From contig JAKAIX010000002.1 in the NCBI GenBank assembly GCA_021814165.1, positions 5,371 through 69,370 of the forward strand: a DNA stretch of 64,000 bases, in the 5' to 3' direction. Of this stretch, positions 80 through 57,957 are shown in pieces. Numbering within the stretch: the stretch's first letter is position 1; every line of letters begins with the position of its first letter. Position numbers and translations under genes: made by a program. A model generated the notes under the pieces. The model was not told where the DNA came from. It saw only the letters and a list, made by a program, of their open reading frames with translations, and made no database searches. This DNA is from a bacterium (GTDB lineage: Bacteria > Patescibacteriota > Minisyncoccia > UBA6257 > GWB1-50-10).

Positions 80-1117
80 TTACAAAAAAACCGGCTGGTA
101 TAACTCTTTGGCGCGCTCAATAAATTCCACCGCGCGATGGTAGTTCGTTCCCTTTTTCCTTATGAAGTCGAACCCTCGCTGCCGGAGTTCTTCTCTTTCT
201 TTCTTATGACTTACGTAATAAGTAAGGCGTTCGAGCAGGTCTTTTTTGTCTTTCACGAAAATGGCGCATCCGTCGGTCGCCTCGGGCGCCGCGGGATTAT
301 CGGAAAAACACAGCGCTCCATATGCGAGAGATTCAACGACCCGCTCGGTTACCATCCTATTTTCAATGTTGCTCGCATCGCTCAACCCGAGGGAAACCAT
401 GGAATTCTTGTAAACGTCGACCCTGGTTTCTTCCTTCACGTACGGCGGAGTGGGAAATATCTTCGCGCGCGGGTTATTAAGGAAGGGGCCATAATACTCC
501 GGATGGTAGTTCTTGTTTCCTATATAACAAATTTCATATTTCTCGTTAACGCATCCTTCTCCTACCTCGTCAGGATGCACGTTCGCGGAAAGCGGATAGG
601 GAATCGCTTTCCTGTCTTTAAGGTAGAGACGATACCATTCCCACACAGGGGACGTTCGAGGAATTTCCGTGCGGTAATACTCGCCGCTCACGAGATACGG
701 CATGCCGAGCCGTTCCATAACATAGACGAGCGAAGACGCCCACGCGATAACCACGATGTCCTTTTTCTTCGCAAGCTGTTTCAGAACGCGGATTTGAAGC
801 CGCTCGGCGACAATACCAAGCACGCCATCCGCGTATGCCGCGGAATAGAATACGTCGTGTCCCGGAATCCATTTGATCGGGTGCAGAAAACGCGTCACGT
901 CGGCGCGTAACATGCGAATCCCCCAAATCGAGTTATAAAAAAAATTATGGCACGAGATCATTACGAACCCGGGCTCGGTGATTTCCTCCACGTGACGTAC
1001 TAATTTGACATCAAAACCGTGCGGCGCGAATCCTGCCGCGAACTTTTCGACAAAGAACCGGTGGTTATAGGGCGTTGGGAGAAAAAGGTGATCGAGAATA
1101 TAAAAAGTTTTTTTCAC
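80..1117 (-). CDS. glycosyltransferase (GT-B type C-terminal domain)
   Basis: 345-aa ORF; C-terminal ESLAYGALCFSDN-like motif typical of GT1/GT4 C-terminal domains; sits at the edge of the glycan locus. Confidence 0.5.
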   Translation of the reverse strand: MKKTFYILDHLFLPTPYNHRFFVEKFAAGFAPHGFDVKLVRHVEEITEPGFVMISCHNFFYNSIWGIRMLRADVTRFLHPIKWIPGHDVFYSAAYADGVLGIVAERLQIRVLKQLAKKKDIVVIAWASSLVYVMERLGMPYLVSGEYYRTEIPRTSPVWEWYRLYLKDRKAIPYPLSANVHPDEVGEGCVNEKYEICYIGNKNYHPEYYGPFLNNPRAKIFPTPPYVKEETRVDVYKNSMVSLGLSDASNIENRMVTERVVESLAYGALCFSDNPAAPEATDGCAIFVKDKKDLLERLTYYVSHKKEREELRQRGFDFIRKKGTNYHRAVEFIERAKELYQPVFL

Positions 1118-1224
1118 GTACCACGATTATATCCGAGAAACGGGAAACTGCAAGGGGACGAAACCACGGAGCGGACTTCGTTCATTCCTTGATTTCGCGC
1201 TCCCTTGTGATTTATCATTATCAC

Positions 1225-1740
1225 ATGATAGAAGTAACCCGCACCAAACTTGAAGGCGTGCTGCTCGTAAAGCCGTCAATAAACGAGGATTTCAGGGGAA
1301 AATACGTTGAGACATATAACGAAGAGGAATATCGCGCAAAAGGAATAGCCGCGCACTTTGTGCAGGACGACATTTCGGTTTCGTCCCGCGGCGTACTTCG
1401 CGGAATCCACGGCGATAAGACAACATGGAAATTAATATCATGCCTCAGGGGGAGGTTCTATTTTGTGGTGGTAAACTGCGACGAGACATCGCCCCAATTC
1501 CGCGAGTGGGAGTCGTTCGTGCTGACGGAAGAAAATCAGTGGCAGGTGCTCGTGCCCCCGAAATTCGGAAACGCGCACCTCGCATTGAGCGACGAAATTG
1601 TCTTTCATTACAAGCAATCAACGTACTACGATCCGGGGAGCCAGTTCAGCTATCGCTGGGATGATCCGCAATTCGGAATCTGGTGGCCGATCAAGAATCC
1701 CCTCCTTTCTCCCAGAGACGAAGGAAAAAAGCGGGATTAA
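1225..1740 (+). CDS. RmlC-like cupin sugar-nucleotide 3,5-epimerase (dTDP-4-dehydrorhamnose 3,5-epimerase family)
   Basis: Start moved to the internal ATG at 1225 (MIEVTRTKLEGVLLVKP...). Motifs FRGKYVETYN, RGIHGDK and WQVLVPPKFGNAHLAL are diagnostic of the RmlC fold. The ORF-track N-terminal extension is Arg-rich junk. Confidence 0.8.
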   Translation: MIEVTRTKLEGVLLVKPSINEDFRGKYVETYNEEEYRAKGIAAHFVQDDISVSSRGVLRGIHGDKTTWKLISCLRGRFYFVVVNCDETSPQFREWESFVLTEENQWQVLVPPKFGNAHLALSDEIVFHYKQSTYYDPGSQFSYRWDDPQFGIWWPIKNPLLSPRDEGKKRD

Positions 1741-1744
1741 CGGC

Positions 1745-2557
1745 ATGTCCAAAAGGAAAAATCTTGTTCTGGGAGGAAAAGGATTCGTAGGCGCCGAACT
1801 CGTGCGGCTCCTTGAAGAGAAGGGCGAGGAAATAAGAATCATAGACAGAAAACTCGGCGACGACCTGAAACACGCCGAGAAATACGCGGAAATGTTCGAG
1901 TGGGCGGATCGCACATGGTTTATCGCCTGGGAGATAGGAATTTGGAAGCACGCAACCGATCCCGCGTATCAGATAGGCACTTTGGCCGCGAGCATCGATC
2001 TCTGCAAGTCCGTCTTCGGTGCATTGGAAAAAGCGAAGAAACCCTTCCTTTTCGTAAGCACCCAGTTCGCCGGATATCCGAGCGTTCTCGGATCGGTAAA
2101 GAGGGTCGGAGAAGTATGGACAACGCTTCTCGGCGGGCTCACCGCGCGTTTCTGGAACGTATACGGATTCGAGGAGATAGGAGAAAAAAGCCACGTGGTC
2201 CCCGATATGATCTATAATGCCCTTACCAAAAAACGTATCACGCTTCTCACGAACGGCGAAGAGACGCGGCAGTTTCTCTTCGTGAGGGATGCGGCGGAAG
2301 GACTCCTGCACCAATTTGAGACCGGGCAACCGGTTGCGGATATCACGAACGGCGAGTGGGTTTCGATAAAAAGCGTGGCGGACATGATCGCCGCAAAAAC
2401 GGGCACCGTGGTAGAAACCGGAGACGGAACCGGGCACGCTTCTTTTGCGGAACCAAAAAATATCCTCTCCGGATGGAGCCCTCGCTTTACTCTCGACGAG
2501 GGGCTGGCACTCACCATCGATCGCATACGAGAGTCGATGCAACAAAAACAAACATGA
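1745..2557 (+). CDS. short-chain NAD(P)-dependent sugar-nucleotide reductase/epimerase (RmlD-like size)
   Basis: Start moved to the ATG at 1745 (MSKRKNLVLGGKGFVGAELVRLLEEKGEEIRIID), a Rossmann GxxGxxG N-terminus. The 270 aa length is in the range of 4-keto-sugar reductases. Confidence 0.6.
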   Translation: MSKRKNLVLGGKGFVGAELVRLLEEKGEEIRIIDRKLGDDLKHAEKYAEMFEWADRTWFIAWEIGIWKHATDPAYQIGTLAASIDLCKSVFGALEKAKKPFLFVSTQFAGYPSVLGSVKRVGEVWTTLLGGLTARFWNVYGFEEIGEKSHVVPDMIYNALTKKRITLLTNGEETRQFLFVRDAAEGLLHQFETGQPVADITNGEWVSIKSVADMIAAKTGTVVETGDGTGHASFAEPKNILSGWSPRFTLDEGLALTIDRIRESMQQKQT

Positions 2558-3495
2558 CGAAAATACTTGTTACGGGAGGCGCGGGATATATCGGATCCGT
2601 ACTCGTGCCGATGTTGTTAAAAGAGGGGTATGAAGTTACGGTAATCGACAACTTCATGTACTCGCAGACGTCGCTTCTCGACGTTTGCTATCATCCGAAC
2701 CTCCATATCGCAAGAGGAGACGTGCGCGATGAAGAGGCCATGAAACGGCTCATGGAGGATGCGGAATTCATCATACCGCTCGCCTGCATCGTCGGCGCAC
2801 CGGCGTGCGACCGAGATCCGAGAGCGGCGCGGACGATAAATCTCGAGGCGGTGGAATTTATCCTAAAGACGCGCCATGCCTCCCAAAAAATCATTTTCCC
2901 GAACACCAACAGCGGCTATGGCAGATCAAAAGACGGGAGCGTGGCATTCTGCGACGAAACGACGCCTCTTAATCCCCTTTCGCTGTACGGAACACTCAAA
3001 GTCCAGGCAGAACAGGAAATATTGGCCGCGGGAAACGCCGTTACTTTCAGGCTGGCCACCGTATTCGGCATAAGCCCGAGAATGAGGCTGGATCTTCTCG
3101 TGAACGACTTCGTGTACCGGGCAATCACCGACAGGGCAGTCATTCTCTTCGAGCCGCATTTCAAACGGAATTATATCCACGTCCGCGACGTGGCAAACGC
3201 GTTCCTGCACGCGATAAAGAATTTCGAAACAATGAAAAATGAGCCGTACAATATCGGGCTGAGCGACGCGAACTTGAGCAAACGCGAGCTCTGCGAGGAA
3301 ATAAAAAAGCAGCTCCCCGATTTTGTGTTTATCGAATCGGAGATAGGAAAAGACGTGGATCAGCGCAACTATATGGTAAGCAACGAAAAAATAGAACGCA
3401 CCGGATTCAAACCCGCCATTTCAATCCAGGAGGGCATCACGGAACTTATAAAAGGATTCAAGATTATTCGTCGTACGGATTTCAGCAATCTTTAA
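2554..3495 (+). CDS. NAD-dependent epimerase/dehydratase family protein (extended SDR)
   Basis: Start at the ATG at 2554 overlaps the previous stop (ATGA). MTKILVTGGAGYIGSVLVPMLL Rossmann motif, 313 aa, SDR-type sugar-nucleotide modifying enzyme. Confidence 0.75.
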   Translation: MTKILVTGGAGYIGSVLVPMLLKEGYEVTVIDNFMYSQTSLLDVCYHPNLHIARGDVRDEEAMKRLMEDAEFIIPLACIVGAPACDRDPRAARTINLEAVEFILKTRHASQKIIFPNTNSGYGRSKDGSVAFCDETTPLNPLSLYGTLKVQAEQEILAAGNAVTFRLATVFGISPRMRLDLLVNDFVYRAITDRAVILFEPHFKRNYIHVRDVANAFLHAIKNFETMKNEPYNIGLSDANLSKRELCEEIKKQLPDFVFIESEIGKDVDQRNYMVSNEKIERTGFKPAISIQEGITELIKGFKIIRRTDFSNL

Positions 3496-5237: not shown

Positions 5238-6237
5238 CGGTTATTTGCGCGCCAAGACCGAACATGTTGGCGATGCTGTTGCCGGGGAAGTAATCGCAAA
5301 GCCCGAGCACGCGCTTTATCATCCGAACCGGTTTTTTCCCGAACCACGAACGCGAGACGGGCCATTTCGTGCCGCACATCGTTTCAAAAGAAGAAAAAAG
5401 ATTGCTGAAGAAATCGGTCGAATACGTTTTTTCAAGAGAAAATCCCGCTTCCTTAAAGAGACGCTGGAACGTTGCCTTCCGATAATGAACGTAATGGAGC
5501 GGGATTACGAAGCCGTCCCACCACTTCCCGCACATTATCGAACTGATACCGCCGTACTGGGGCACACCGATTACCAGCACCCCTCCGGGCTTCAAAACGC
5601 GGTTGAGTTCCCTGAGCGCTGCCGCGGGATCGGGGAAATGCTCAAAAACATGGAGAAGATGCACGGCATCGAAAAAACCGTCAGAAAATTCGAGCGTGTC
5701 CACGCTCCCTACGGAAATATTCTTCAGCCCCTGGCTTACCGCCGACGCCACCGCAATCGGACTCGGATCAACGCCGAACGTTTCCCATCCCAAGCCCTTG
5801 AGGTCGGCGAGAAAATTCCCCGCACCACAGCCAAGATCAAGCAGCCGCCCTCCTTTCACGAAACGAGGGTAATGGGCGAACGCGAGACGAAACGGGAAAA
5901 GGGAAAACTGCCACCATCGTTTTTCGCCGTACCCGAAGTATTGCCCCAACGTCCTCCGTTTCAGTAATGCGAGGATGCGCGCGACTACGCCCGCATTGCG
6001 CGCTCCCGCCACCCTGAACGGCCCGTACGACTCGTCAAAGAAAGAAGAGAGGGCTCCGTAGGCAAGCTGGGGATCGGTGAAAACCGTGCCGCACGAGCTG
6101 CACCGCATAACGGCAAAGGCCACGCCGGGATAGACGCGTTGTACCTTTCCTGTTTCTTCCATGCGGGCATGTATAATTGCGTGTCGTTCCGCGTGGCACA
6201 CGGGACATTTTCCTCTGCTTTGGACAATCGTACTCAT
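5206..6237 (-). CDS. class I SAM-dependent methyltransferase with N-terminal Zn-ribbon
   Basis: Start at M23 (MSTIVQSRGKCPVCHAER...CSSCG), 1 nt after the stop of the upstream gene. Motif LLDLGCGAGNF (SAM motif I) and VLKPGGVLVI (post-II). Confidence 0.75.
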   Translation of the reverse strand: MSTIVQSRGKCPVCHAERHAIIHARMEETGKVQRVYPGVAFAVMRCSSCGTVFTDPQLAYGALSSFFDESYGPFRVAGARNAGVVARILALLKRRTLGQYFGYGEKRWWQFSLFPFRLAFAHYPRFVKGGRLLDLGCGAGNFLADLKGLGWETFGVDPSPIAVASAVSQGLKNISVGSVDTLEFSDGFFDAVHLLHVFEHFPDPAAALRELNRVLKPGGVLVIGVPQYGGISSIMCGKWWDGFVIPLHYVHYRKATFQRLFKEAGFSLEKTYSTDFFSNLFSSFETMCGTKWPVSRSWFGKKPVRMIKRVLGLCDYFPGNSIANMFGLGAQITVIARKTADVS

Positions 6238-28969: not shown

Positions 28970-29064
28970 AATTACCAATTTTTCAATTTCCAATGATCAA
29001 TTAATTTTAAAATCGTTCAATTGAATTATTCATTGAAAATTGGAAATTGGTCATTGAAAATTTA
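28970..29064. repeat. intergenic inverted heptad-array element, copy A
   Basis: Left arm ttttcaatttccaatgatcaatt; AT-rich spacer; right arm cattgaaaattggaaattggtcattgaaaat; fills the whole stop-to-start gap. Confidence 0.8.
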
Positions 29065-30423: not shown

Positions 30424-30532
30424 AGTGAATTATCAATTTTCAATTTCCAATGATCAATTGATTTTAAAATTATTTAATTGAATCATTTATCGAAAATTGG
30501 AAATTGGCCATTGAAAATTTATACTCCTTTCC
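30424..30532. repeat. intergenic inverted heptad-array element, copy B
   Basis: caattttcaatttccaatgatcaattg ... cgaaaattggaaattggccattgaaaat; between a stop (30541) and a start (30420). Confidence 0.8.
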
Positions 30533-30540
30533 ATTATACC

Positions 30541-33051
30541 CTACTTCACGGGCGTTATCTCTATCTTCGGCGTTCCCAAACCCGAAGAAGACGGAGCGGG
30601 GAGTTTGATTCCAAGTCCGTTGAATACCGGTTCGAGTTGCGACCAGATCGGGACTGTCCTGAAATCGATTTTTGTCGAGAGTCTTTCGAACTCGACCTTC
30701 GCCTCGGGATACTTCCCCCAGAGATAGTACGCAACCGCGATTTTCAAATTGATTTCGTTCTCCTGTAAAACGCTGGGCCTCATCTTCAACGCCCACGCAT
30801 AGTAACGGATTGCCGACTCATAGTCCTGTTTCTCATCCCCCATGATATCCCCGAGAGTCGTCGCTTCCGCTATGGTGCGCGGCTTACGATTGAGTTCCAA
30901 CGCTTTCCCTATTTCCCTGTCTCCCGTCGGAACGTCATGGAGCTGGTACGCAATGATTCCCAGATAGAAGTGTGGGTCTCCCGCCGACGGGTTCAAGTCA
31001 ACGGCAACCTTAAGCGCGTCGTAGGCGCTTTTCAAATCGCCTTCGAGAACCTTGGTCTTTCCGATTATATAGTACACCTGCTGGCGGTTCGGACTCAGCT
31101 CGAGAGCCTTTTTCTCCAACGCCTCCGCGTCTTTCAGGTAGCCCGCATCGAATTCATAAAACGTGTTTTTAAAGTCCGCGAGCGTGGCATAAAAAAGATA
31201 ATTCCGAGGATGATGATCAATCACTTTTTGCAGCTCCCCCTCAACGCGTTTCTGCAGGTTTGCGACATCGGGGTATTCGACCTGGCTCTCATACGCTCCT
31301 TTCACCACGTTTGCGAACGTAAGCCGGATATCGTCACGGTACGGGGTTCCCGCTGCAAGCGCCTCGTTCAGCGCCGAAACCGATTCCGCAGGAAGTTTGT
31401 TGAGATAATAATTGGGGCCCCAGTACTCACGGCCGGCGGCATACACCATGGGCCAGTTGAGAAAGAAAATCGGGATAAGCGAAACGACGAGAGCGGGGTA
31501 GGCGAACGGAACACGGGATGACGACGAACGCTCGCCGCCATGGGGAGGTCCGGCCTCCTCACGATCGGAGGCCGGGCCTCCTAATATTGCGTTCGGCGAT
31601 CCCTTATAGCGAACATCTATATAGGCTAAGACGAGAAAAAACATAAGATAGGTGCCGATCGTATCGAAGATGACGAGGTTTTGGATAAAATACGCGGCGA
31701 GCATGCCGAAGAATATGATTTTCGGGATACTCCCCTCCCTCGATCTTTTCAGTTCGTAGAGAAGAAGAGCCCATATTCCGAGATACGCAAGAAGTCCCAC
31801 TATGCCGCTTGTTATTGCGTACTCGATAAGCACGTTGTGCGGCTTGTCCCAATACGTCTCGCCGAAATTATTGGAAAGCAGTGCCGGATCATAATGTCTC
31901 TGGAATGCGAGGTTGAAATTTTCCCACCCGAATCCGAATACCGGATGTACAGAGAACGATTGCGCAGCGCTTCGCCACGCGATTATTCTGTTTTCAAATT
32001 CGCTCCGCACCGTCGTGAAGCTTTGGATACGATCAAATCCTGGTACCTGCATCCAAAATGAAGCGCTCCGCGTAAAATAAAAGACGCCGCCGAATGCAAT
32101 CACTATTATAAGAATCCAAAGCCAGACATTTTTAAAAATGAGAAAACTCTGCCTCCCGCCGGAAAAACGTGAAGGATCGGCCTCCAAGCGCGAGGAGGCC
32201 GAGCCTCCTGATTTTGCGTTTGTGCGCTGATAGCGGATAGCGAGAAGAAAAATAATAATGAAGAGACCGACTATAAGACCTCCTATATCTCCTCTTGTCT
32301 CGGTTTTAAAAATAGCAAACGCATCAACGAGAGCGATTATGAGGGCAAGCCACGGCATGACGCGGGCGACACCACGGAGGCCCGGCCTCCGCGAGTAGGA
32401 GGCCGGGCCTCCCAATTCCGCGGAACTCCTAGTTTCATACCAAACATATATCCCCAGGAAGACGTGAAAAAGGAGATAACCGGCGAGGAACGTGGGGTTA
32501 CCGAACGAAGATCCCGGGCGCGGATCATCCTGTCGCAGGAAAAATTGTCCGATATCGGGAAGGAAGGTAAGAAGCGCGCCAAGCGCGGAGAACAAACTCG
32601 CCACCAAGCTCGCAAACCAGACATTCTTCCATTTGAGCTCATCTCCGAGGGAAGAGAGAGCGACGAAGAAGAGTGTAAAAATCCAGAGTGCAACAATGCC
32701 GATGGTACGCACCTCTTGCGACCATAAACTCATCATGAGATCCTCCCCAAAAAACGCGGAGATAGTGAGTACGAGCATAAAGACGACAACACCGATAGTG
32801 AGGGGGGTGAAACGAGGACTAAAACGGCGACGGTCAAAGCGAGGAGACTCGGCTTCCTTACTGAGGCCGAGTCTCCTGCCGAGGACGAGCGCGACCCAGA
32901 GGAAGATAATGATTCCCGCGAGCGACTGGAAAATAGCGCTCTTTACGACGATGAAAGGATTCATCGTCCACTTCCAGAAAAAGAGGGGGACAAGTATCAC
33001 CATCGCGTAGAGGCAGCCGCGGATAATCTTCAAAACGGAGTTTTCGGACAT
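30541..33051 (-). CDS. Wzy_C/O-antigen-ligase-like polytopic membrane domain fused to C-terminal TPR repeats
   Basis: 836 aa. The N-terminal ~480 aa are multi-TM; the C-terminal ~300 aa are TPR (ALELSPNRQQVYYIIGKT..., LKMRPSVLQENE...). Carries four in-frame GC-rich palindromic inserts. Confidence 0.6.
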   Translation of the reverse strand: MSENSVLKIIRGCLYAMVILVPLFFWKWTMNPFIVVKSAIFQSLAGIIIFLWVALVLGRRLGLSKEAESPRFDRRRFSPRFTPLTIGVVVFMLVLTISAFFGEDLMMSLWSQEVRTIGIVALWIFTLFFVALSSLGDELKWKNVWFASLVASLFSALGALLTFLPDIGQFFLRQDDPRPGSSFGNPTFLAGYLLFHVFLGIYVWYETRSSAELGGPASYSRRPGLRGVARVMPWLALIIALVDAFAIFKTETRGDIGGLIVGLFIIIFLLAIRYQRTNAKSGGSASSRLEADPSRFSGGRQSFLIFKNVWLWILIIVIAFGGVFYFTRSASFWMQVPGFDRIQSFTTVRSEFENRIIAWRSAAQSFSVHPVFGFGWENFNLAFQRHYDPALLSNNFGETYWDKPHNVLIEYAITSGIVGLLAYLGIWALLLYELKRSREGSIPKIIFFGMLAAYFIQNLVIFDTIGTYLMFFLVLAYIDVRYKGSPNAILGGPASDREEAGPPHGGERSSSSRVPFAYPALVVSLIPIFFLNWPMVYAAGREYWGPNYYLNKLPAESVSALNEALAAGTPYRDDIRLTFANVVKGAYESQVEYPDVANLQKRVEGELQKVIDHHPRNYLFYATLADFKNTFYEFDAGYLKDAEALEKKALELSPNRQQVYYIIGKTKVLEGDLKSAYDALKVAVDLNPSAGDPHFYLGIIAYQLHDVPTGDREIGKALELNRKPRTIAEATTLGDIMGDEKQDYESAIRYYAWALKMRPSVLQENEINLKIAVAYYLWGKYPEAKVEFERLSTKIDFRTVPIWSQLEPVFNGLGIKLPAPSSSGLGTPKIEITPVK
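31544..31581. repeat. in-frame GC-rich palindrome doublet, insert 1
   Basis: ggaggtccggcctcc-N8-ggaggccgggcctcc inside the CDS; encodes GGPASDREEAGPP. Confidence 0.8.
32172..32208. repeat. in-frame GC-rich palindrome doublet, insert 2 (first half degenerate)
   Basis: ggatcggcctcc-N8-ggaggccgagcctcc, followed by a tgattttgcg flank similar to insert 1. Confidence 0.7.
32376..32412. repeat. in-frame GC-rich palindrome doublet, insert 3
   Basis: ggaggcccggcctcc-N7-ggaggccgggcctcc; encodes GGPASYSRRPGLR. Confidence 0.8.
32843..32877. repeat. in-frame palindrome, insert 4 (variant)
   Basis: ggagactcggc-N13-gccgagtctcc. Confidence 0.6.
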
Positions 33052-37136: not shown

Positions 37137-37223
37137 GTATTTCCACACTACATTCCCCTTACTCGGGCGCTCCGGGCCGCTTGGCCAAGTCTTACCCTCG
37201 TTCGGAGAATGTAGTGTGGAAAT
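37137..37223. other. long perfect hairpin (17-bp stem) enclosing a 42-nt core identical to a second copy at 46066-46112 (inverted orientation)
   Basis: Stem atttccacactacattc / gaatgtagtgtggaaat; core actcgggcgctccgggccgcttggccaagtcttaccctcgttcg. Confidence 0.8.
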
Positions 37224-40663: not shown

Positions 40664-40760
40664 ACGAGAATTTTCAATTTCCGATTATCAATTTTCAGGA
40701 CTTGTTTTGAAAATTGGTTTATTGGAAATTCACTGAAAATTGGAAATTGATAATTGAAAA
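40664..40760. repeat. intergenic inverted heptad-array element, copy C
   Basis: ttttcaatttccgattatcaatttt ... cactgaaaattggaaattgataattgaaaat; abuts the clpB start codon (12 nt upstream). Confidence 0.8.
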
Positions 40761-40848
40761 TCAATTACTCATTACACTACGTTACATTATACGTCATCCT
40801 ACTCTTTTTTTGTAAGATTAGCAAGCAAGCAACCCGAGTGCTAATTTT

Positions 40849-43046: not shown

Positions 43047-43146
43047 TAACATTTCGAATTTTCAATTTCCAATGGTCAATATTCAATCAATTTTTTAATT
43101 TGAGAATTTCAAAATTCACTGAAAATTGGAAATTGATAATCGAAAA
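43047..43146. repeat. intergenic inverted heptad-array element, copy D
   Basis: aattttcaatttccaatggtcaatatt ... cactgaaaattggaaattgataatcgaaaat; ends at the stop of the cysteine desulfurase gene. Confidence 0.8.
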
Positions 43147-44670
43147 TTACTCTCCGAGCAATTTTTTTATTCTCCTCACCGCCTCCCTTATTTCCTGTCT
43201 CGTTGTCGGCACACCGAAGCTAAACCGTATGCTCCCGCGGATGCGTTCCGACGGAAGTCCCAACGCCTCAAGCACGTGGGAGGGAACGAACGAGCGAGCG
43301 CTGCACGCCGAACCCGAGGATGCGGCGATGCCCGCCATGTCCATCTTCACCAAGAGATCTCCGGCAAACTCCGTCGGGAAATAGGCGTTTATGATGTGCG
43401 GTGCCATAATTCCTGATTCCTTATTCCCGATTCTTAATTCATTATCACCGTTCATCGATGCCTGCGGATATATTTTTTTCAACTCTCTCCAGAAGTAGTT
43501 CCTGACCTCCGTCACTTGCTTTGCGTGTTTCGCGCGTCCCTTCTCCGCGAGCATGGCCGCATTCCCGAATCCTACAATCGCGGGAACATTTTCCGTTCCC
43601 GAACGGAACCCAAATTCCTGGCCGCCCCCCGTCACGAATGGAATTAGGAATTTTGAATTATGAATTATGGCTCCGTCACGTTTCACCCCTAATTCCTTAT
43701 TCCTAATTCCTGATTCCTGTCCCTTTATTCCTGATTCTTGATTCTTAACGAAGAGCGCGCCCGCTCCCTTCGGGCCGTAGATCTTCTGGGAGGATAACGT
43801 CATGAGGTCAACGCCGAGCCGTCCCACGTCGCACTTGAAATATTCGAACGCCTGGGCGGCATCCACATGCAGGAGCGGATATGCCTCTCCTGCAAATCCA
43901 AAATCCAAATGACCAATGTAAAATGGACGAATCGTCGGCTGATGTGCTTTTAACATTGTGCTTTCAGCTATTGATTTGGCATTCAGCGTTTGAAATTTGG
44001 CATTTCTAAAATTTCTGATGACTTCAGAAATTTTAGAAATTGGCTGTACGCTCCCTATCTCGTTATTCACGTACATAACGGACACGAGCACTGTCCGTTC
44101 ATCAAGCATCGTTTCGAGTTTTTTCAAATCAACAATTCCCCTCTTATCGACGGGAAGTACCGCAACTTCCACGCCGTCCTTCTCGAGGGCGTACGCGGTA
44201 TCCAGCACCGACTCGTGTTCAATCGCCGAGACGATAACCTTTGGACGAAAGCCACGAGTTATACTTCCCTTCCGTCGCCCCCCTAATTCCTTATTCCCTG
44301 CCTGCCTGCGCAGGCAGGCCTGCGCAGGCAGGTTTATTCCTGACTCCCGTCCTCTTATTCCTGATTCCCATTCCCTGGTTCCGAAAACAACACCGCGGAG
44401 TGCGAGGTTGTTTGCCTCGGTTGCGCCCGAGGTGAATATTACTTCACGAAATTCCGCATGGATCGCTTTCGCGATCGTCTCCCGTGCGGCATCGATCGCC
44501 GCAATCGCCTCCTGTCCGAATGAATGCAATGATCCGGGGTTCCCGAATGTATCCGAGAAGTACGGTTCCATCACGCGCTTTACTTCCCGCAGAACGGGCG
44601 TGGAGGCGGCGTAATCTAAATAAATCTTCAGAGATTGTTTCTTCATTTTTTCGTTACCCTTAGACACCAA
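43147..44670 (-). CDS. cysteine desulfurase (class V aminotransferase, NifS/IscS-like) carrying four in-frame insertions
   Basis: DYAASTP, SGATEANN, SSQKIYGPKG (PLP Lys) and SSGSACS (catalytic Cys loop) are all conserved. At 507 aa it is about 110 aa longer than typical, because of palindromic DNA inserts. Confidence 0.8.
   Translation of the reverse strand: MVSKGNEKMKKQSLKIYLDYAASTPVLREVKRVMEPYFSDTFGNPGSLHSFGQEAIAAIDAARETIAKAIHAEFREVIFTSGATEANNLALRGVVFGTREWESGIRGRESGINLPAQACLRRQAGNKELGGRRKGSITRGFRPKVIVSAIEHESVLDTAYALEKDGVEVAVLPVDKRGIVDLKKLETMLDERTVLVSVMYVNNEIGSVQPISKISEVIRNFRNAKFQTLNAKSIAESTMLKAHQPTIRPFYIGHLDFGFAGEAYPLLHVDAAQAFEYFKCDVGRLGVDLMTLSSQKIYGPKGAGALFVKNQESGIKGQESGIRNKELGVKRDGAIIHNSKFLIPFVTGGGQEFGFRSGTENVPAIVGFGNAAMLAEKGRAKHAKQVTEVRNYFWRELKKIYPQASMNGDNELRIGNKESGIMAPHIINAYFPTEFAGDLLVKMDMAGIAASSGSACSARSFVPSHVLEALGLPSERIRGSIRFSFGVPTTRQEIREAVRRIKKLLGE
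44297..44332. repeat. perfect GC palindrome inside the cysteine desulfurase CDS
   Basis: cctgcctgcctgcgcaggcaggcctgcgcaggcagg; translated in frame as LPAQACLRRQAG. Confidence 0.8.
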
Positions 44671-44679
44671 ACAAAGAAG

Positions 44680-44835
44680 ATGATTGCCCTCTATAAAATC
44701 CTAAACTCAAAATCCTAAATCCTAAACAATTACCAAAAAATAAAAACCCGGATATCCGAAACACGGGTTTTCGAAATTCGAATTTCTGTCATTGAAATTT
44801 GTTTAGAGTTTAGCGCTTAGGGTTTAGGATTTTCC
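44680..44835. terminator. large palindromic intergenic structure: CCTAAA/TTTAGGG-type heptad arms flanking a rho-independent terminator hairpin (44742-44770)
   Basis: aaaacccg-gatatccgaaaca-cgggtttt flanked by aaatcctaaactcaaaatcctaaatcctaaac and gtttagagtttagcgcttagggtttaggatttt. Confidence 0.55.
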
Positions 44836-45334: not shown

Positions 45335-45431
45335 TAATGCTCAATTTCCAATGATCAATTTTCAATCAATTTTTTAATTCGAAAATTTTAAAATCGACTG
45401 AAAATCGGAAATTGATAATTGAAAATTCTCG
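45335..45431. repeat. intergenic inverted heptad-array element, copy E
   Basis: ctcaatttccaatgatcaattttcaat ... gactgaaaatcggaaattgataattgaaaat; contains a palindromic ATTATAAT box 9 nt upstream of the mgtC-like ATG. Confidence 0.8.
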
Positions 45432-46007: not shown

Positions 46008-46047
46008 GATCCTTTTAATTATAACATTCCGCCCTCACTATAACTCT

Positions 46048-46130
46048 CTCTGTGCCGCACCTTCCCGAACGAGGGTAAGACTTGGCCAAGCGGCCCGGAG
46101 CGCCCGAGTGAAGGAAGGTGCGGCACAGAG
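46048..46130. other. long perfect hairpin (18-bp stem) enclosing the same 42-nt core as 37137-37223, in opposite orientation
   Basis: Stem ctctgtgccgcaccttcc / ggaaggtgcggcacagag; the core is the reverse complement of the copy-1 core, identical over 42 nt. Confidence 0.8.
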
Positions 46131-46171
46131 ACCTACCATCTCCCACTCCTTTCTGTTATTTTGAAAGAGAC

Positions 46172-51719: not shown

Positions 51720-51755
51720 GCCTCAAAATGCGCGCATATGCGCGCATTTTGAGGC
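51720..51755. terminator. perfect 18-bp-arm palindrome between convergent znuB-like and gdh genes (bidirectional terminator candidate)
   Basis: gcctcaaaatgcgcgcat|atgcgcgcattttgaggc. Confidence 0.6.
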
Positions 51756-57896: not shown

Positions 57897-57916
57897 CGGA
57901 TTCTTTTGAGCTCAAT

Positions 57917-57946
57917 CAAAAAACTCCCTTGGAAGGGAGTTTTTTG
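57917..57946. terminator. bidirectional rho-independent terminator
   Basis: aaaaaactccctt-ggaa-gggagtttttt between convergent hup and the secreted-protein gene. Confidence 0.85.
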
Positions 57947-57957
57947 ATTGACACTTA

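Follow-up and report, generated by a model that had tools for sequence, protein, structure and literature searches.

The stretch of DNA analysed here, 64,000 nt of contig JAKAIX010000002.1 from the patescibacterial assembly GCA_021814165.1 (hereafter the window), carries a gene for an IscS/NifS-type cysteine desulfurase in which four surface loops have probably accumulated short repeat DNA that is translated together with the rest of the protein. We propose that replication-based copying supplied this DNA, that the loops tolerated it and that selection acted as a filter; the outcome resembles that of the Rickettsia palindromic elements (RPE) and was probably reached by local copying and slippage. 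The coding sequence lies on the minus strand at 43147..44646 (499 amino acids plus stop, ATG at 44646), within an open reading frame (ORF) of 43147..44670 that offers a TTG at 44670 as an alternative start. The additional segments are referred to as S1 to S4.

The cysteine desulfurase and its additional segments

The protein matches Pfam PF00266 (Aminotran_5; E = 5.7e-61) in three separate stretches and the solved IscS, NifS and NFS1 chains of 382-406 amino acids (4r5f, E = 1.5e-69; 1p3w, E = 1.8e-67) in four blocks, namely residues 9-87, 136-211, 258-303 and 334-487; the gaps between these blocks correspond to S1, S2 and S3, and S4 falls within the last one. With 499 residues, against 376-385 in insert-free homologues of Parcubacteria, the excess is about 115, close to the 110 or so given in the original prediction, which had been made from the sequence alone. 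Its statement that the catalytic motifs are intact is also borne out, the residues invariant across 119 homologues (K288, C448, H144, D262, Q265 and T76 among them) being all kept. K288 stands in the context SSQKIYGPKG and C448 in SSGSACS; as elsewhere in the family, the former would be the lysine that binds pyridoxal phosphate and the latter would belong to the catalytic cysteine loop.

An AlphaFold2 model based on the 119-sequence alignment reached a predicted template modelling (TM) score of 0.86, with a predicted local distance difference test (pLDDT) above 90 in the core and from <50 to 68 in the four segments, and Foldseek related it to IscS, NifS and NFS1 with target-normalised TM scores of 0.85-0.95. 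Since the core is modelled with confidence, the segments have low pLDDT and the fold is recognised, the enzyme framework appears intact and the extra residues appear to form poorly ordered loops. Judged by sequence and model, the product is an intact, working-type IscS/NifS (group I) cysteine desulfurase with predicted activity. A location of the inserts in surface loops, which the original prediction proposed to check against IscS/SufS structures, agrees with their position between conserved blocks and their low pLDDT, from which we infer their exposure. No Rfam family matched anywhere in the gene, and a megablast search against plasmids gave no match within it. An intein or intron was considered as well, and was rejected because the segments are short (14-48 amino acids), of low complexity and without splicing motifs.

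Four inserts of repeat DNA

Four frame-preserving insertions of repeat DNA had been proposed, all of them hairpin-forming. The insertions are there, with lengths that are multiples of three in an unbroken ORF; by fold z-score (from dinucleotide shuffles, with five core control segments at -2.1 to +0.8), hairpins are supported for S1 and S3, but not for the body of S2 or for S4. The positions first given for S1, S3 and S4 were close to those found here, whereas the second, 43996-44029, was wrong and the real S2 is three to four times longer. Three of the inserts belong to one family, designated A, a palindromic element of about 100 nt in which GGAATNA units make up the left arm and TAATTCC-like units the right one, with a non-repeat loop in between.

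The complete form of this element is seen in S3 (43642-43743, minus strand; amino acids 302-335), in which a loop of about 16 nt separates a (GGAATNA)n left arm, periodic at 21 nt, from the right arm ATAATTCATAATTCAAAATTCCTAATT. Its inverted repeat has 31-nt arms that are 81% complementary, Tandem Repeats Finder (TRF) reports periods of 7, 14 and 21, and the fold z-score is -2.5; the arms ggaattaggaatt and aattccttattcc read as originally described. Residues 304-333 are unaligned to IscS of the Protein Data Bank (PDB), the net gain is about +28 amino acids and pLDDT is 44-54. S1 (44245-44388, minus; amino acids 87-134) is likewise an element of family-A heptamers, the right arm being truncated and a GC palindrome nested in the element; it contains GGAATNA units with a TRF period of 21 at 44336-44382, its RNA fold has a z-score of -3.5 (0 of 200 shuffles folded equally well), residues 88-135 are unaligned to PDB IscS, and it adds about +40 amino acids at pLDDT <50. 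S4 (43405-43446, minus; amino acids 401-414) is a half element of the left-arm type only, with a net gain of about +10 amino acids around residues 405-414 and no hairpin of its own (z = +1.2); over 35 nt it is 77% complementary to the right arm of S3, 207 nt away. The string attributed to S4 was found as described, at 43408-43427, as were the repetitive peptides ESGIRGRESGI and QESGIKGQESGIR. The AATTCCTGATTCC repeats are equally real, with 13 matches in the window at no more than two mismatches, 11 of them in the IscS gene, where 2.6 would be expected by chance in the whole window.

S1 and S3 align with each other, and with the S1 and S3 copies of the related locus L001, over about 100 nt including the non-repeat loop. 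Family-A elements are also present at S2 in the related locus L088 and at S1 in L002, and pairwise identity is mostly 60-78%, loop included. A stretch of 32 nt common to S1 and S3 is 88% identical; concerted evolution of the two within a genome was considered and goes no further than this stretch, orthologous copies being overall slightly more alike than paralogous ones. In the alignment of family-A elements the arms are conserved in sequence and a single compensated pair was seen, which speaks neither for nor against structural selection.

S2 (about 43882-44013, minus; amino acids 212-255) is of a different kind, a decayed copy of family B, which is recognised by peptides of the KFEARNSKQ...SDFGF type and by CGAAATT / TTTCGGA heptamers. 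Residues 212-257 stand opposite 3 PDB residues, a net gain of about +43 amino acids; estimates of the extra segment range from about 37 to 44 amino acids (pLDDT 42-58), and the body has a fold z-score of +0.2. It aligns with L002 and with an intact hairpin in L091 (z = -5.8); the pairing is lost in the window and in L002 and kept in L091, and S2 is therefore an old, decaying copy.

The palindrome nested in S1 defines a third family, C (44298..44333, about 36 nt, GCCTGCGCAGGCAG x2, encoding LPAQACLRRQAG). The GC palindrome predicted for the first insert is thus present, at 44301-44332, as a perfect 18-mer at 44301-44318 with an overlapping second copy; it can alternatively be described as a 14-nt unit repeated 2.1 times (100%) or as 15-bp perfect arms. 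This block is missing from the three other family-A copies aligned with S1. Its 16-mer occurs also in a Yonathbacteria IscS at site S4, where it is read as LPAQAG, and the peptide ACLRRQG, from another frame, is found at a fifth loop in the homologues P0011, P0015, P0016 and P0065. On the antisense strand the GC palindrome is followed by T-rich sequence, and the two together score as a terminator.

An inverted repeat in conserved codons

At the proximal edge of S2 lies a perfect 17-bp inverted repeat (44002-44018 / 44024-44040, 5-nt loop), which had been taken for a 14-bp repeat constituting the second insert. Its arms are the codons of ISKISE and (V)IRNFRN, residues that clade members without the S2 insert have conserved as well; going by this comparison, the repeat is made of clade-conserved codons and is no insertion. 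In L088 the ISKISE/IRNFRN codons also form a hairpin, of 13 bp, with a paired synonymous change from TCT/AGA to TCG/CGA. Stems of 8 bp and of other sequence were seen at the same K-I-S-E / I-R-N-F codons in L090 and L091.

Probable translation of the inserts

Every insert has a length divisible by three, and the window gene has no in-frame stop in 140 insert codons, where about 9 would be expected (P ~9e-5) from the stop density of 6.4% in the five other frames of the same insert DNA. The seven syntenic genes compared below have together 0 stops in 754 insert codons, against 5.2% off-frame; the window gene provides the fair test, because the six orthologues from the database are intact ORFs by construction. 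Three GGAATTA or TAATTCC units in perfect succession contain a stop in every frame. The variable base N of GAAT-N-A follows the codon phase: it is only A or C when it falls in codon position 1 (14/14) and only C or T in position 2 (21/21), and all four bases occur in position 3. For an array of 7-nt units to grow without losing the frame, steps of 21 nt are needed, and this is the periodicity of S1 and S3. The absence of in-frame stops and the tracking of codon phase by the variable base indicate that the inserts are almost certainly translated, and insert-derived tryptic peptides such as DGAIIHNSK and ESGINLPAQACLR are predicted.

Authenticity and comparison with orthologues

The exact IscS protein (P0001) is recorded in 14 contigs, and the 1500-nt gene with its flanks shows 0 differences across two metagenome-assembled genomes (MAGs) of NCBI and three Logan assemblies of different SRA runs, which makes misassembly of the inserts very unlikely. 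By the names that its homologues bear, the source is an ultra-small patescibacterium of Parcubacteria type. For comparison, the window was set beside six syntenic genomes (L001, L002, L088, L089, L090 and L091), whose orthologue DNA was recovered through exact-protein look-ups; as a length control, the IscS alignment was also used for a profile scan of genome contigs, which returned, among the matches listed, generic IscS from all phyla with few close relatives and supplied the locus L021. The seven loci share the gene order Cob_adeno_trans, MgtC, IscS, SIMPL, HtrA, ClpB, and the neighbouring genes are stable in length (differences of at most 24 amino acids). The six IscS proteins measure 413, 448, 461, 466, 478 and 525 amino acids, the shortest being that of L089. 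The cores of the seven proteins are 73-81% identical in amino acids, and the four-fold sites, with 36-59% identity, are near saturation. The original prediction named, as an observation that would contradict it, the presence of the segments in all homologues; this is not what is found, because the inserts are absent or different in syntenic orthologues, which at 413-525 amino acids carry other inserts or none.

At a given loop the genomes differ in the type of hairpin, or have none. At S3, a homologous hairpin (NQESGI...loop...IIPNSKFLI) is present in the window, L001, L088 and L090, a remnant in L002, an unrelated hairpin in L091 and nothing in L089, and the S4 site holds a 42-nt GGAATCA tract in five of the seven orthologues, L089 and L090 being those that lack it. 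Depending on the genome, the S1 and S2 sites are occupied by sequence of the GGAATNA type, of the CGAAATT/TTTCGGA type or by GC-rich stems (z to -7.4), and orthologous copies of the elements have fold z-scores of -2.4 to -7.4. Very stable hairpins were noted at S1-S3 in L091 (5688-5804, z = -5.8; 5943-6086, z = -3.5) and L090 (2244-2423, z = -7.4); those of these two genomes are GC-rich or of the CGAAATT/TTTCGGA type.

Across the 119 homologues the segments vary from 5 to 70 amino acids at S1, from 4 to 57 at S2, from 5 to 48 at S3 and from 3 to 56 at S4, and many of the inserts read as "palindromic peptides" with a flavour of their own in each genome. At S3 the right arm of the window gene (NSKFLIP) overlays the ancestral loop NPKLLSP of insert-free homologues, and mini-hairpins of 12 amino acids (SKFEIQNSKFLS) occupy this site in other homologues. 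A long S1 peptide, RGTGRLSAPAAE..., is common to the homologues P0004, P0006, P0019 and P0025.

Distribution of the repeats beyond the gene

Within the window, two adjacent GGAATNA units occur in the IscS gene only. When the census was extended to 113 kb (the 64-kb window and 49 kb of the six relatives, with a share of 9% for IscS), 29 of 29 matches to the GGAATNAGGAAT dimer lay inside IscS and 0 in the other 103 kb. As far as this DNA goes, family A thus appears restricted to the one gene, and the genes around IscS are much less affected. The proposal of a genome-wide, RPE-like phenomenon is borne out as to the RPE-like outcome but only partly as to its extent, because family A was found only inside IscS in the 113 kb; the pattern points to a gene-local repeat family accompanied by a few other palindrome families rather than to one genome-wide mobile element.

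Palindromes in coding DNA are nevertheless not unique to IscS, since the gene of an 836-amino-acid membrane protein (30541-33051, minus; its relative P0164 carries Wzy_C) has them in frame as well. They are GC-rich, lie at 32164-32215, 32376-32412 and 32842-32877, and are read as GRRLGLSKEAESPR, ELGGPASYSRRPGLRG and SGGSASSRLEADPS, with LGGPASDREEAGPP as a further peptide; in the alignment with a 30%-identical relative, two of the palindromes fall where there are gaps. This is probably the other palindrome-bearing gene to which the original prediction alluded, and the claim that a second gene of the window carries in-frame palindromes holds for it. The spacers contain a palindromic family distinct from A, with five AT-rich copies of about 90 nt between same-strand genes (28977-29063, 30428-30523, 40669-40761, 43051-43148 and 45336-45427) built of AATTTCC / AATGATC / AATTTTC heptamers; the copy at 43051..43148 follows directly after the IscS stop codon. 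Another palindrome, with TTTAGGA heptamers and 42-nt arms, is placed upstream between MgtC and IscS (44695..44833), and inside it a small GC hairpin with a T-run (44747-44760) scores as a minus-strand terminator.

A metagenome scan for three consecutive GGAATNA units found them on contigs of 31-69% GC, with many matches intergenic and a few interrupting IleS, CarA and MutS2-like ORFs. Patescibacteria are thus not alone in having the GGAATNA repeat in coding DNA, as such unrelated metagenome ORFs carry it. One of these contigs, L106 (Ga0268262_10012488), has an isoleucyl-tRNA-synthetase-like ORF of 1082 amino acids (100-3345, minus) that carries MRNEELGIRNKG and, about 40 amino acids further on, SIPNSSLLIPNYY, with complementary heptamer arms around the conserved segment FLAWTTTPWTLP. 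The repeat was also seen in frame in L129 (CarA-like) and in L111 and L114 (MutS2-like). An exhaustive phmmer search with the S3 peptide gave 43 matches, and the 16 retrieved of these were mostly short ORFs of tandem (QESGIRN)n or (QESGVRS)n, so these matches say little on which protein families carry the element; a word-indexed protein search with the 40-amino-acid S3 peptide yielded no candidate. Arrays of GGAATCA-type heptamers read as ORFs make up the short predicted proteins P0122-P0136, and in P0147 such an array lies between flanks that resemble, by eye, a reverse transcriptase.

Relation to known palindromic repeats

The closest precedent is provided by RPE-1 to RPE-8 of Rickettsia, as far as the work of Ogata et al. 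2000 is reported in the papers that cite it (PMC3184786, PMC1166351). Their length is about 105-146 bp, and of the 728 copies spread over the R. felis genome 85 lie in ORFs (PMC3184786, PMC1166351). As with RPE, the IscS inserts are palindromes of about 100-150 bp in protein genes, with the frame kept and presumably translated, at positions tolerated by the fold, present or absent among orthologues and located in a reduced genome; the hairpin typical of RPE is found in S1 and S3, and not in the S2 body or S4. They differ from RPE in belonging to another phylum and in having no sequence relationship with them (RPE consensus sequences and hidden Markov models were not compared), in the arms composed of degenerate heptamers, in the 21-nt length steps, and in the second palindrome nested in one copy. 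The dispersal that characterises RPE is also not seen, with three family-A copies in one gene and none in about 103 kb outside. As they share the outcome with RPE, but neither the dispersal nor a sequence relationship, the IscS inserts are better kept apart from them.

In-frame genic copies are also described for BRE of Bordetella, BOX, RUP and SPRITE of pneumococcus and RU of enterobacteria (PMC3184786, PMC2759123). All of these are intergenic-type hairpin repeats with open frames that can lie inside or at the ends of coding sequences, like those of IscS; unlike family A, which is absent from the spacers seen, they are mainly intergenic, and the spacers of the window hold another family. In Nostoc, Elhai and co-workers reportedly described in 2008 small dispersed repeats that are lodged within heptamer tracts. 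Heptamer repeats, such as the short tandemly repeated repetitive (STRR) sequences and TAACTGA, are known from Beggiatoaceae, cyanobacteria and Bacteroidetes, where they occupy spacers and also some ORFs (PMC4679880). The IscS gene shares with these systems the unit of 7, the occurrence in spacers and some ORFs and the GC-rich hairpin within a heptamer tract, but the known repeats are chiefly direct and non-coding, and here the heptamers form palindrome arms in a gene for an essential-type enzyme.

The mitochondrial coding palindromes of Nematomorpha are perfect inverted repeats of conserved codons, translated in both arms, that extend up to 284 bp (PMC6649704). The 17-bp ISKISE/IRNFRN repeat is similar in having conserved codons in both arms; however, the Nematomorpha palindromes cover conserved regions, whereas most of the repeat DNA in IscS is extra loop sequence and only one short repeat covers conserved codons. 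Repetitive extragenic palindromic (REP) sequences are short, GC-rich imperfect palindromes in many copies; they and their REPIN are extragenic, tagged with GTAG or CGTC and mobilised by the transposases known as REP-associated tyrosine transposases (RAYT; PMC3733652, PMC3116915). The 18-nt CCTGCCTGCGCAGGCAGG unit is of REP size and recurs across genomes, but it lies within a gene and lacks GTAG and CGTC, and no RAYT was seen, although no RAYT search was made. In-frame palindromic inserts in Patescibacteria (the candidate phyla radiation, CPR) were not found described in the literature, the coverage of which was incomplete and is not proof of absence.

Origin of the inserts

Taken together, these data make it likely, though by no means certain, that the four surface loops accumulated translated short repeat DNA through replication-based copying, the loops being tolerant and selection serving as the filter; both the tolerance of the enzyme and the copying mechanism are what we infer from the patterns described. 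The inserts would have originated and spread without any enzyme encoded by the element: slippage of the heptamer tracts would lengthen the arms, inverted and direct template switching between nearby sites of the same gene would produce further copies, and the presence of family C within the S1 copy would reflect a nested insertion. Selection would act as a filter only, letting pass what keeps the frame, contains no stop codon and falls in a loop that tolerates a floppy segment; length changes in 21-nt (3 x 7) steps may be explained because only frame-keeping versions survive.

Several observations favour such copying over transposition. The spacers, in which an insertion would do no harm, lack family A, and a single gene has three copies of it in less than 1 kb. 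S4 is complementary to the nearby right arm of S3, this arm overlies the ancestral loop, and mini-hairpins stand at the same site elsewhere; finally, the 17-bp repeat is made of conserved codons, with the paired synonymous change in L088. Template switching within quasi-palindromes together with slippage is expected to give a pattern of this kind.

Some results weigh against this explanation. The window covers 64 kb of a genome of about 0.78 Mb, the longest contig of which measures 775 kb, and family A could be dispersed elsewhere in it. Family C is identical across genomes and sites, for which mobility or horizontal spread offers a better fit than copying within the gene. The nucleotide identity of S3 between orthologues, 70-77%, compares with 72-75% in the core and about 50% at four-fold sites, which hints at constraint rather than at pure passenger DNA, with the reservation that repeats inflate alignment identity; a 24-amino-acid version of S3 recurs in many homologues of 50-70% identity, and S3 adjoins the conserved GGGQE motif, which is modelled at low confidence. 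In IscS of more distant named Patescibacteria the same loops also hold inserts, most of which show no significant hairpin signal and several a weak one or none. The identical family C elsewhere and the core-like conservation of S3 leave room for a mobile element or for an acquired function.

A wider form of the copying explanation, which we hold to be possible but rather doubtful, is that a process common to the Patescibacteria lineage, combining heptamer slippage with inverted template switching, builds, perfects and copies genic hairpins, so that surface loops become a nursery for new translated segments; it is possibly linked to missing hairpin-processing or 3'-exonuclease functions. The IscS proteins have four or five hot loops, with a differing repeat flavour in almost every genome. 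If such a process operates, even conserved codons like those of ISKISE/IRNFRN may be driven towards perfect palindromes.

It is less probable that the inserts are non-autonomous mobile elements, like RPE, REP or miniature inverted-repeat transposable elements (MITEs), that are spread genome-wide by a transposase acting in trans and find in IscS a tolerant target. One and the same element, the loop of which is homologous between copies, does occupy different sites (S1, S2, S3) in related genomes, the GC palindrome is found unchanged in other genomes and at other sites, a second gene (30541-33051) has in-frame GC palindromes, and intergenic palindrome families are present in the window; in unrelated metagenome contigs, hairpins of the GGAATNA type break into IleS, CarA and MutS2-like ORFs, and RPE offer a precedent (PMC1166351, PMC3184786). 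Such a mobile element is, however, difficult to reconcile with the confinement of family A to IscS in the census (29/29, with none in 103 kb that include AT-rich spacers). Terminal inverted repeats apart from the arms and target-site duplications were not seen at the insert borders; the whole element is palindromic, and no duplicated flank is evident at the borders of S1 and S3, although the repeats make these borders ambiguous. GTAG or CGTC tags are likewise missing, and a search for a transposase, not an exhaustive one, identified none.

We consider it improbable that the inserts are adaptive, either as new interaction surfaces or as hairpin signals in mRNA or DNA that act on stability, pausing or antisense termination. 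The retention of family-A inserts at S3 and S4 in many homologues, conserved about as the core is, would agree with a function, and so would the recurrence of a hairpin at the ISKISE/IRNFRN codons (showing the paired change in L088 and stems of other sequence in L090 and L091) and the terminator score of the GC palindrome with its T-rich sequence. On the other hand, syntenic orthologues do without inserts (L089, 413 amino acids) or have unrelated sequences at the same loops, the S2 hairpin has been lost, the inserts are of low complexity and modelled at low confidence, and neither compensatory covariation beyond one pair nor an Rfam match was detected.

The remaining explanations can be given little weight. 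Heptamer tracts could make a phase-variable contingency gene, switched on and off by 7-nt slippage, given the tandem tracts and a unit length, 7 nt, that is not divisible by 3; but the tracts are imperfect (71-86% matches), five assemblies of different read sets are identical to the base and all seven orthologues are in frame, which makes this very improbable. Removal of the inserts from the mRNA, or their bypassing by the ribosome, is just as hard to credit: bypassing elements in other systems are hairpin-rich, and hairpins flank or form two of the inserts, but insert lengths are multiples of three, in-frame stops are lacking against an off-frame density of 5-6%, and the tuning of the variable base to codon phase would be unexpected in DNA that is never read. 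Repeats and palindromes are typical sites of misassembly, yet an assembly artefact or a decaying pseudogene is the least credible explanation of all, with the sequence identical in two MAGs and three independent Logan assemblies, the ORF intact with every invariant residue, and related inserts in six other genomes.

Significance

Rickettsia, with a few other bacteria, has so far supplied most cases of coding palindromes, which were regarded as a curiosity; they are met here in the Patescibacteria, a huge and little-studied radiation, with a different architecture of heptamer arms, 21-nt steps and nested mini-palindromes. Several insertions in one gene, and another repeat flavour in each genome at the same loops, are further traits in which they differ. 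For annotation and phylogenetics, it matters that conserved proteins of these organisms vary in length by 30% for non-functional reasons and that such segments will disturb alignments and structure predictions. The gene amounts to a natural experiment on the tolerance, and perhaps the recruitment, of random extra loops and on the origin of palindromes by mobility or by template switching, and the seven syntenic orthologues with and without each insert constitute a test set for biochemical comparison. The finding would gain interest if a lineage-wide hairpin-generating process were demonstrated.

Other palindromes of the window

Two further inverted repeats without Rfam match were noted in spacers. 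The first, at 46047-46131, has perfect arms of 19 bp (TCTCTGTGCCGCACCTTCC) separated by 47 nt and is located between the divergent Cob_adeno_trans and thymidylate kinase genes; the second, at 37139-37223, has perfect arms of 17 bp (ATTTCCACACTACATTC) separated by 51 nt and is located in a spacer longer than 600 nt that precedes the gene for a 1150-amino-acid PG_binding_1 protein. Perfect palindromes with 18 and 19 bp per arm and loops of 0-2 nt also lie between convergent genes at 51720-51755 and 57912-57951, where they look like bidirectional terminators.

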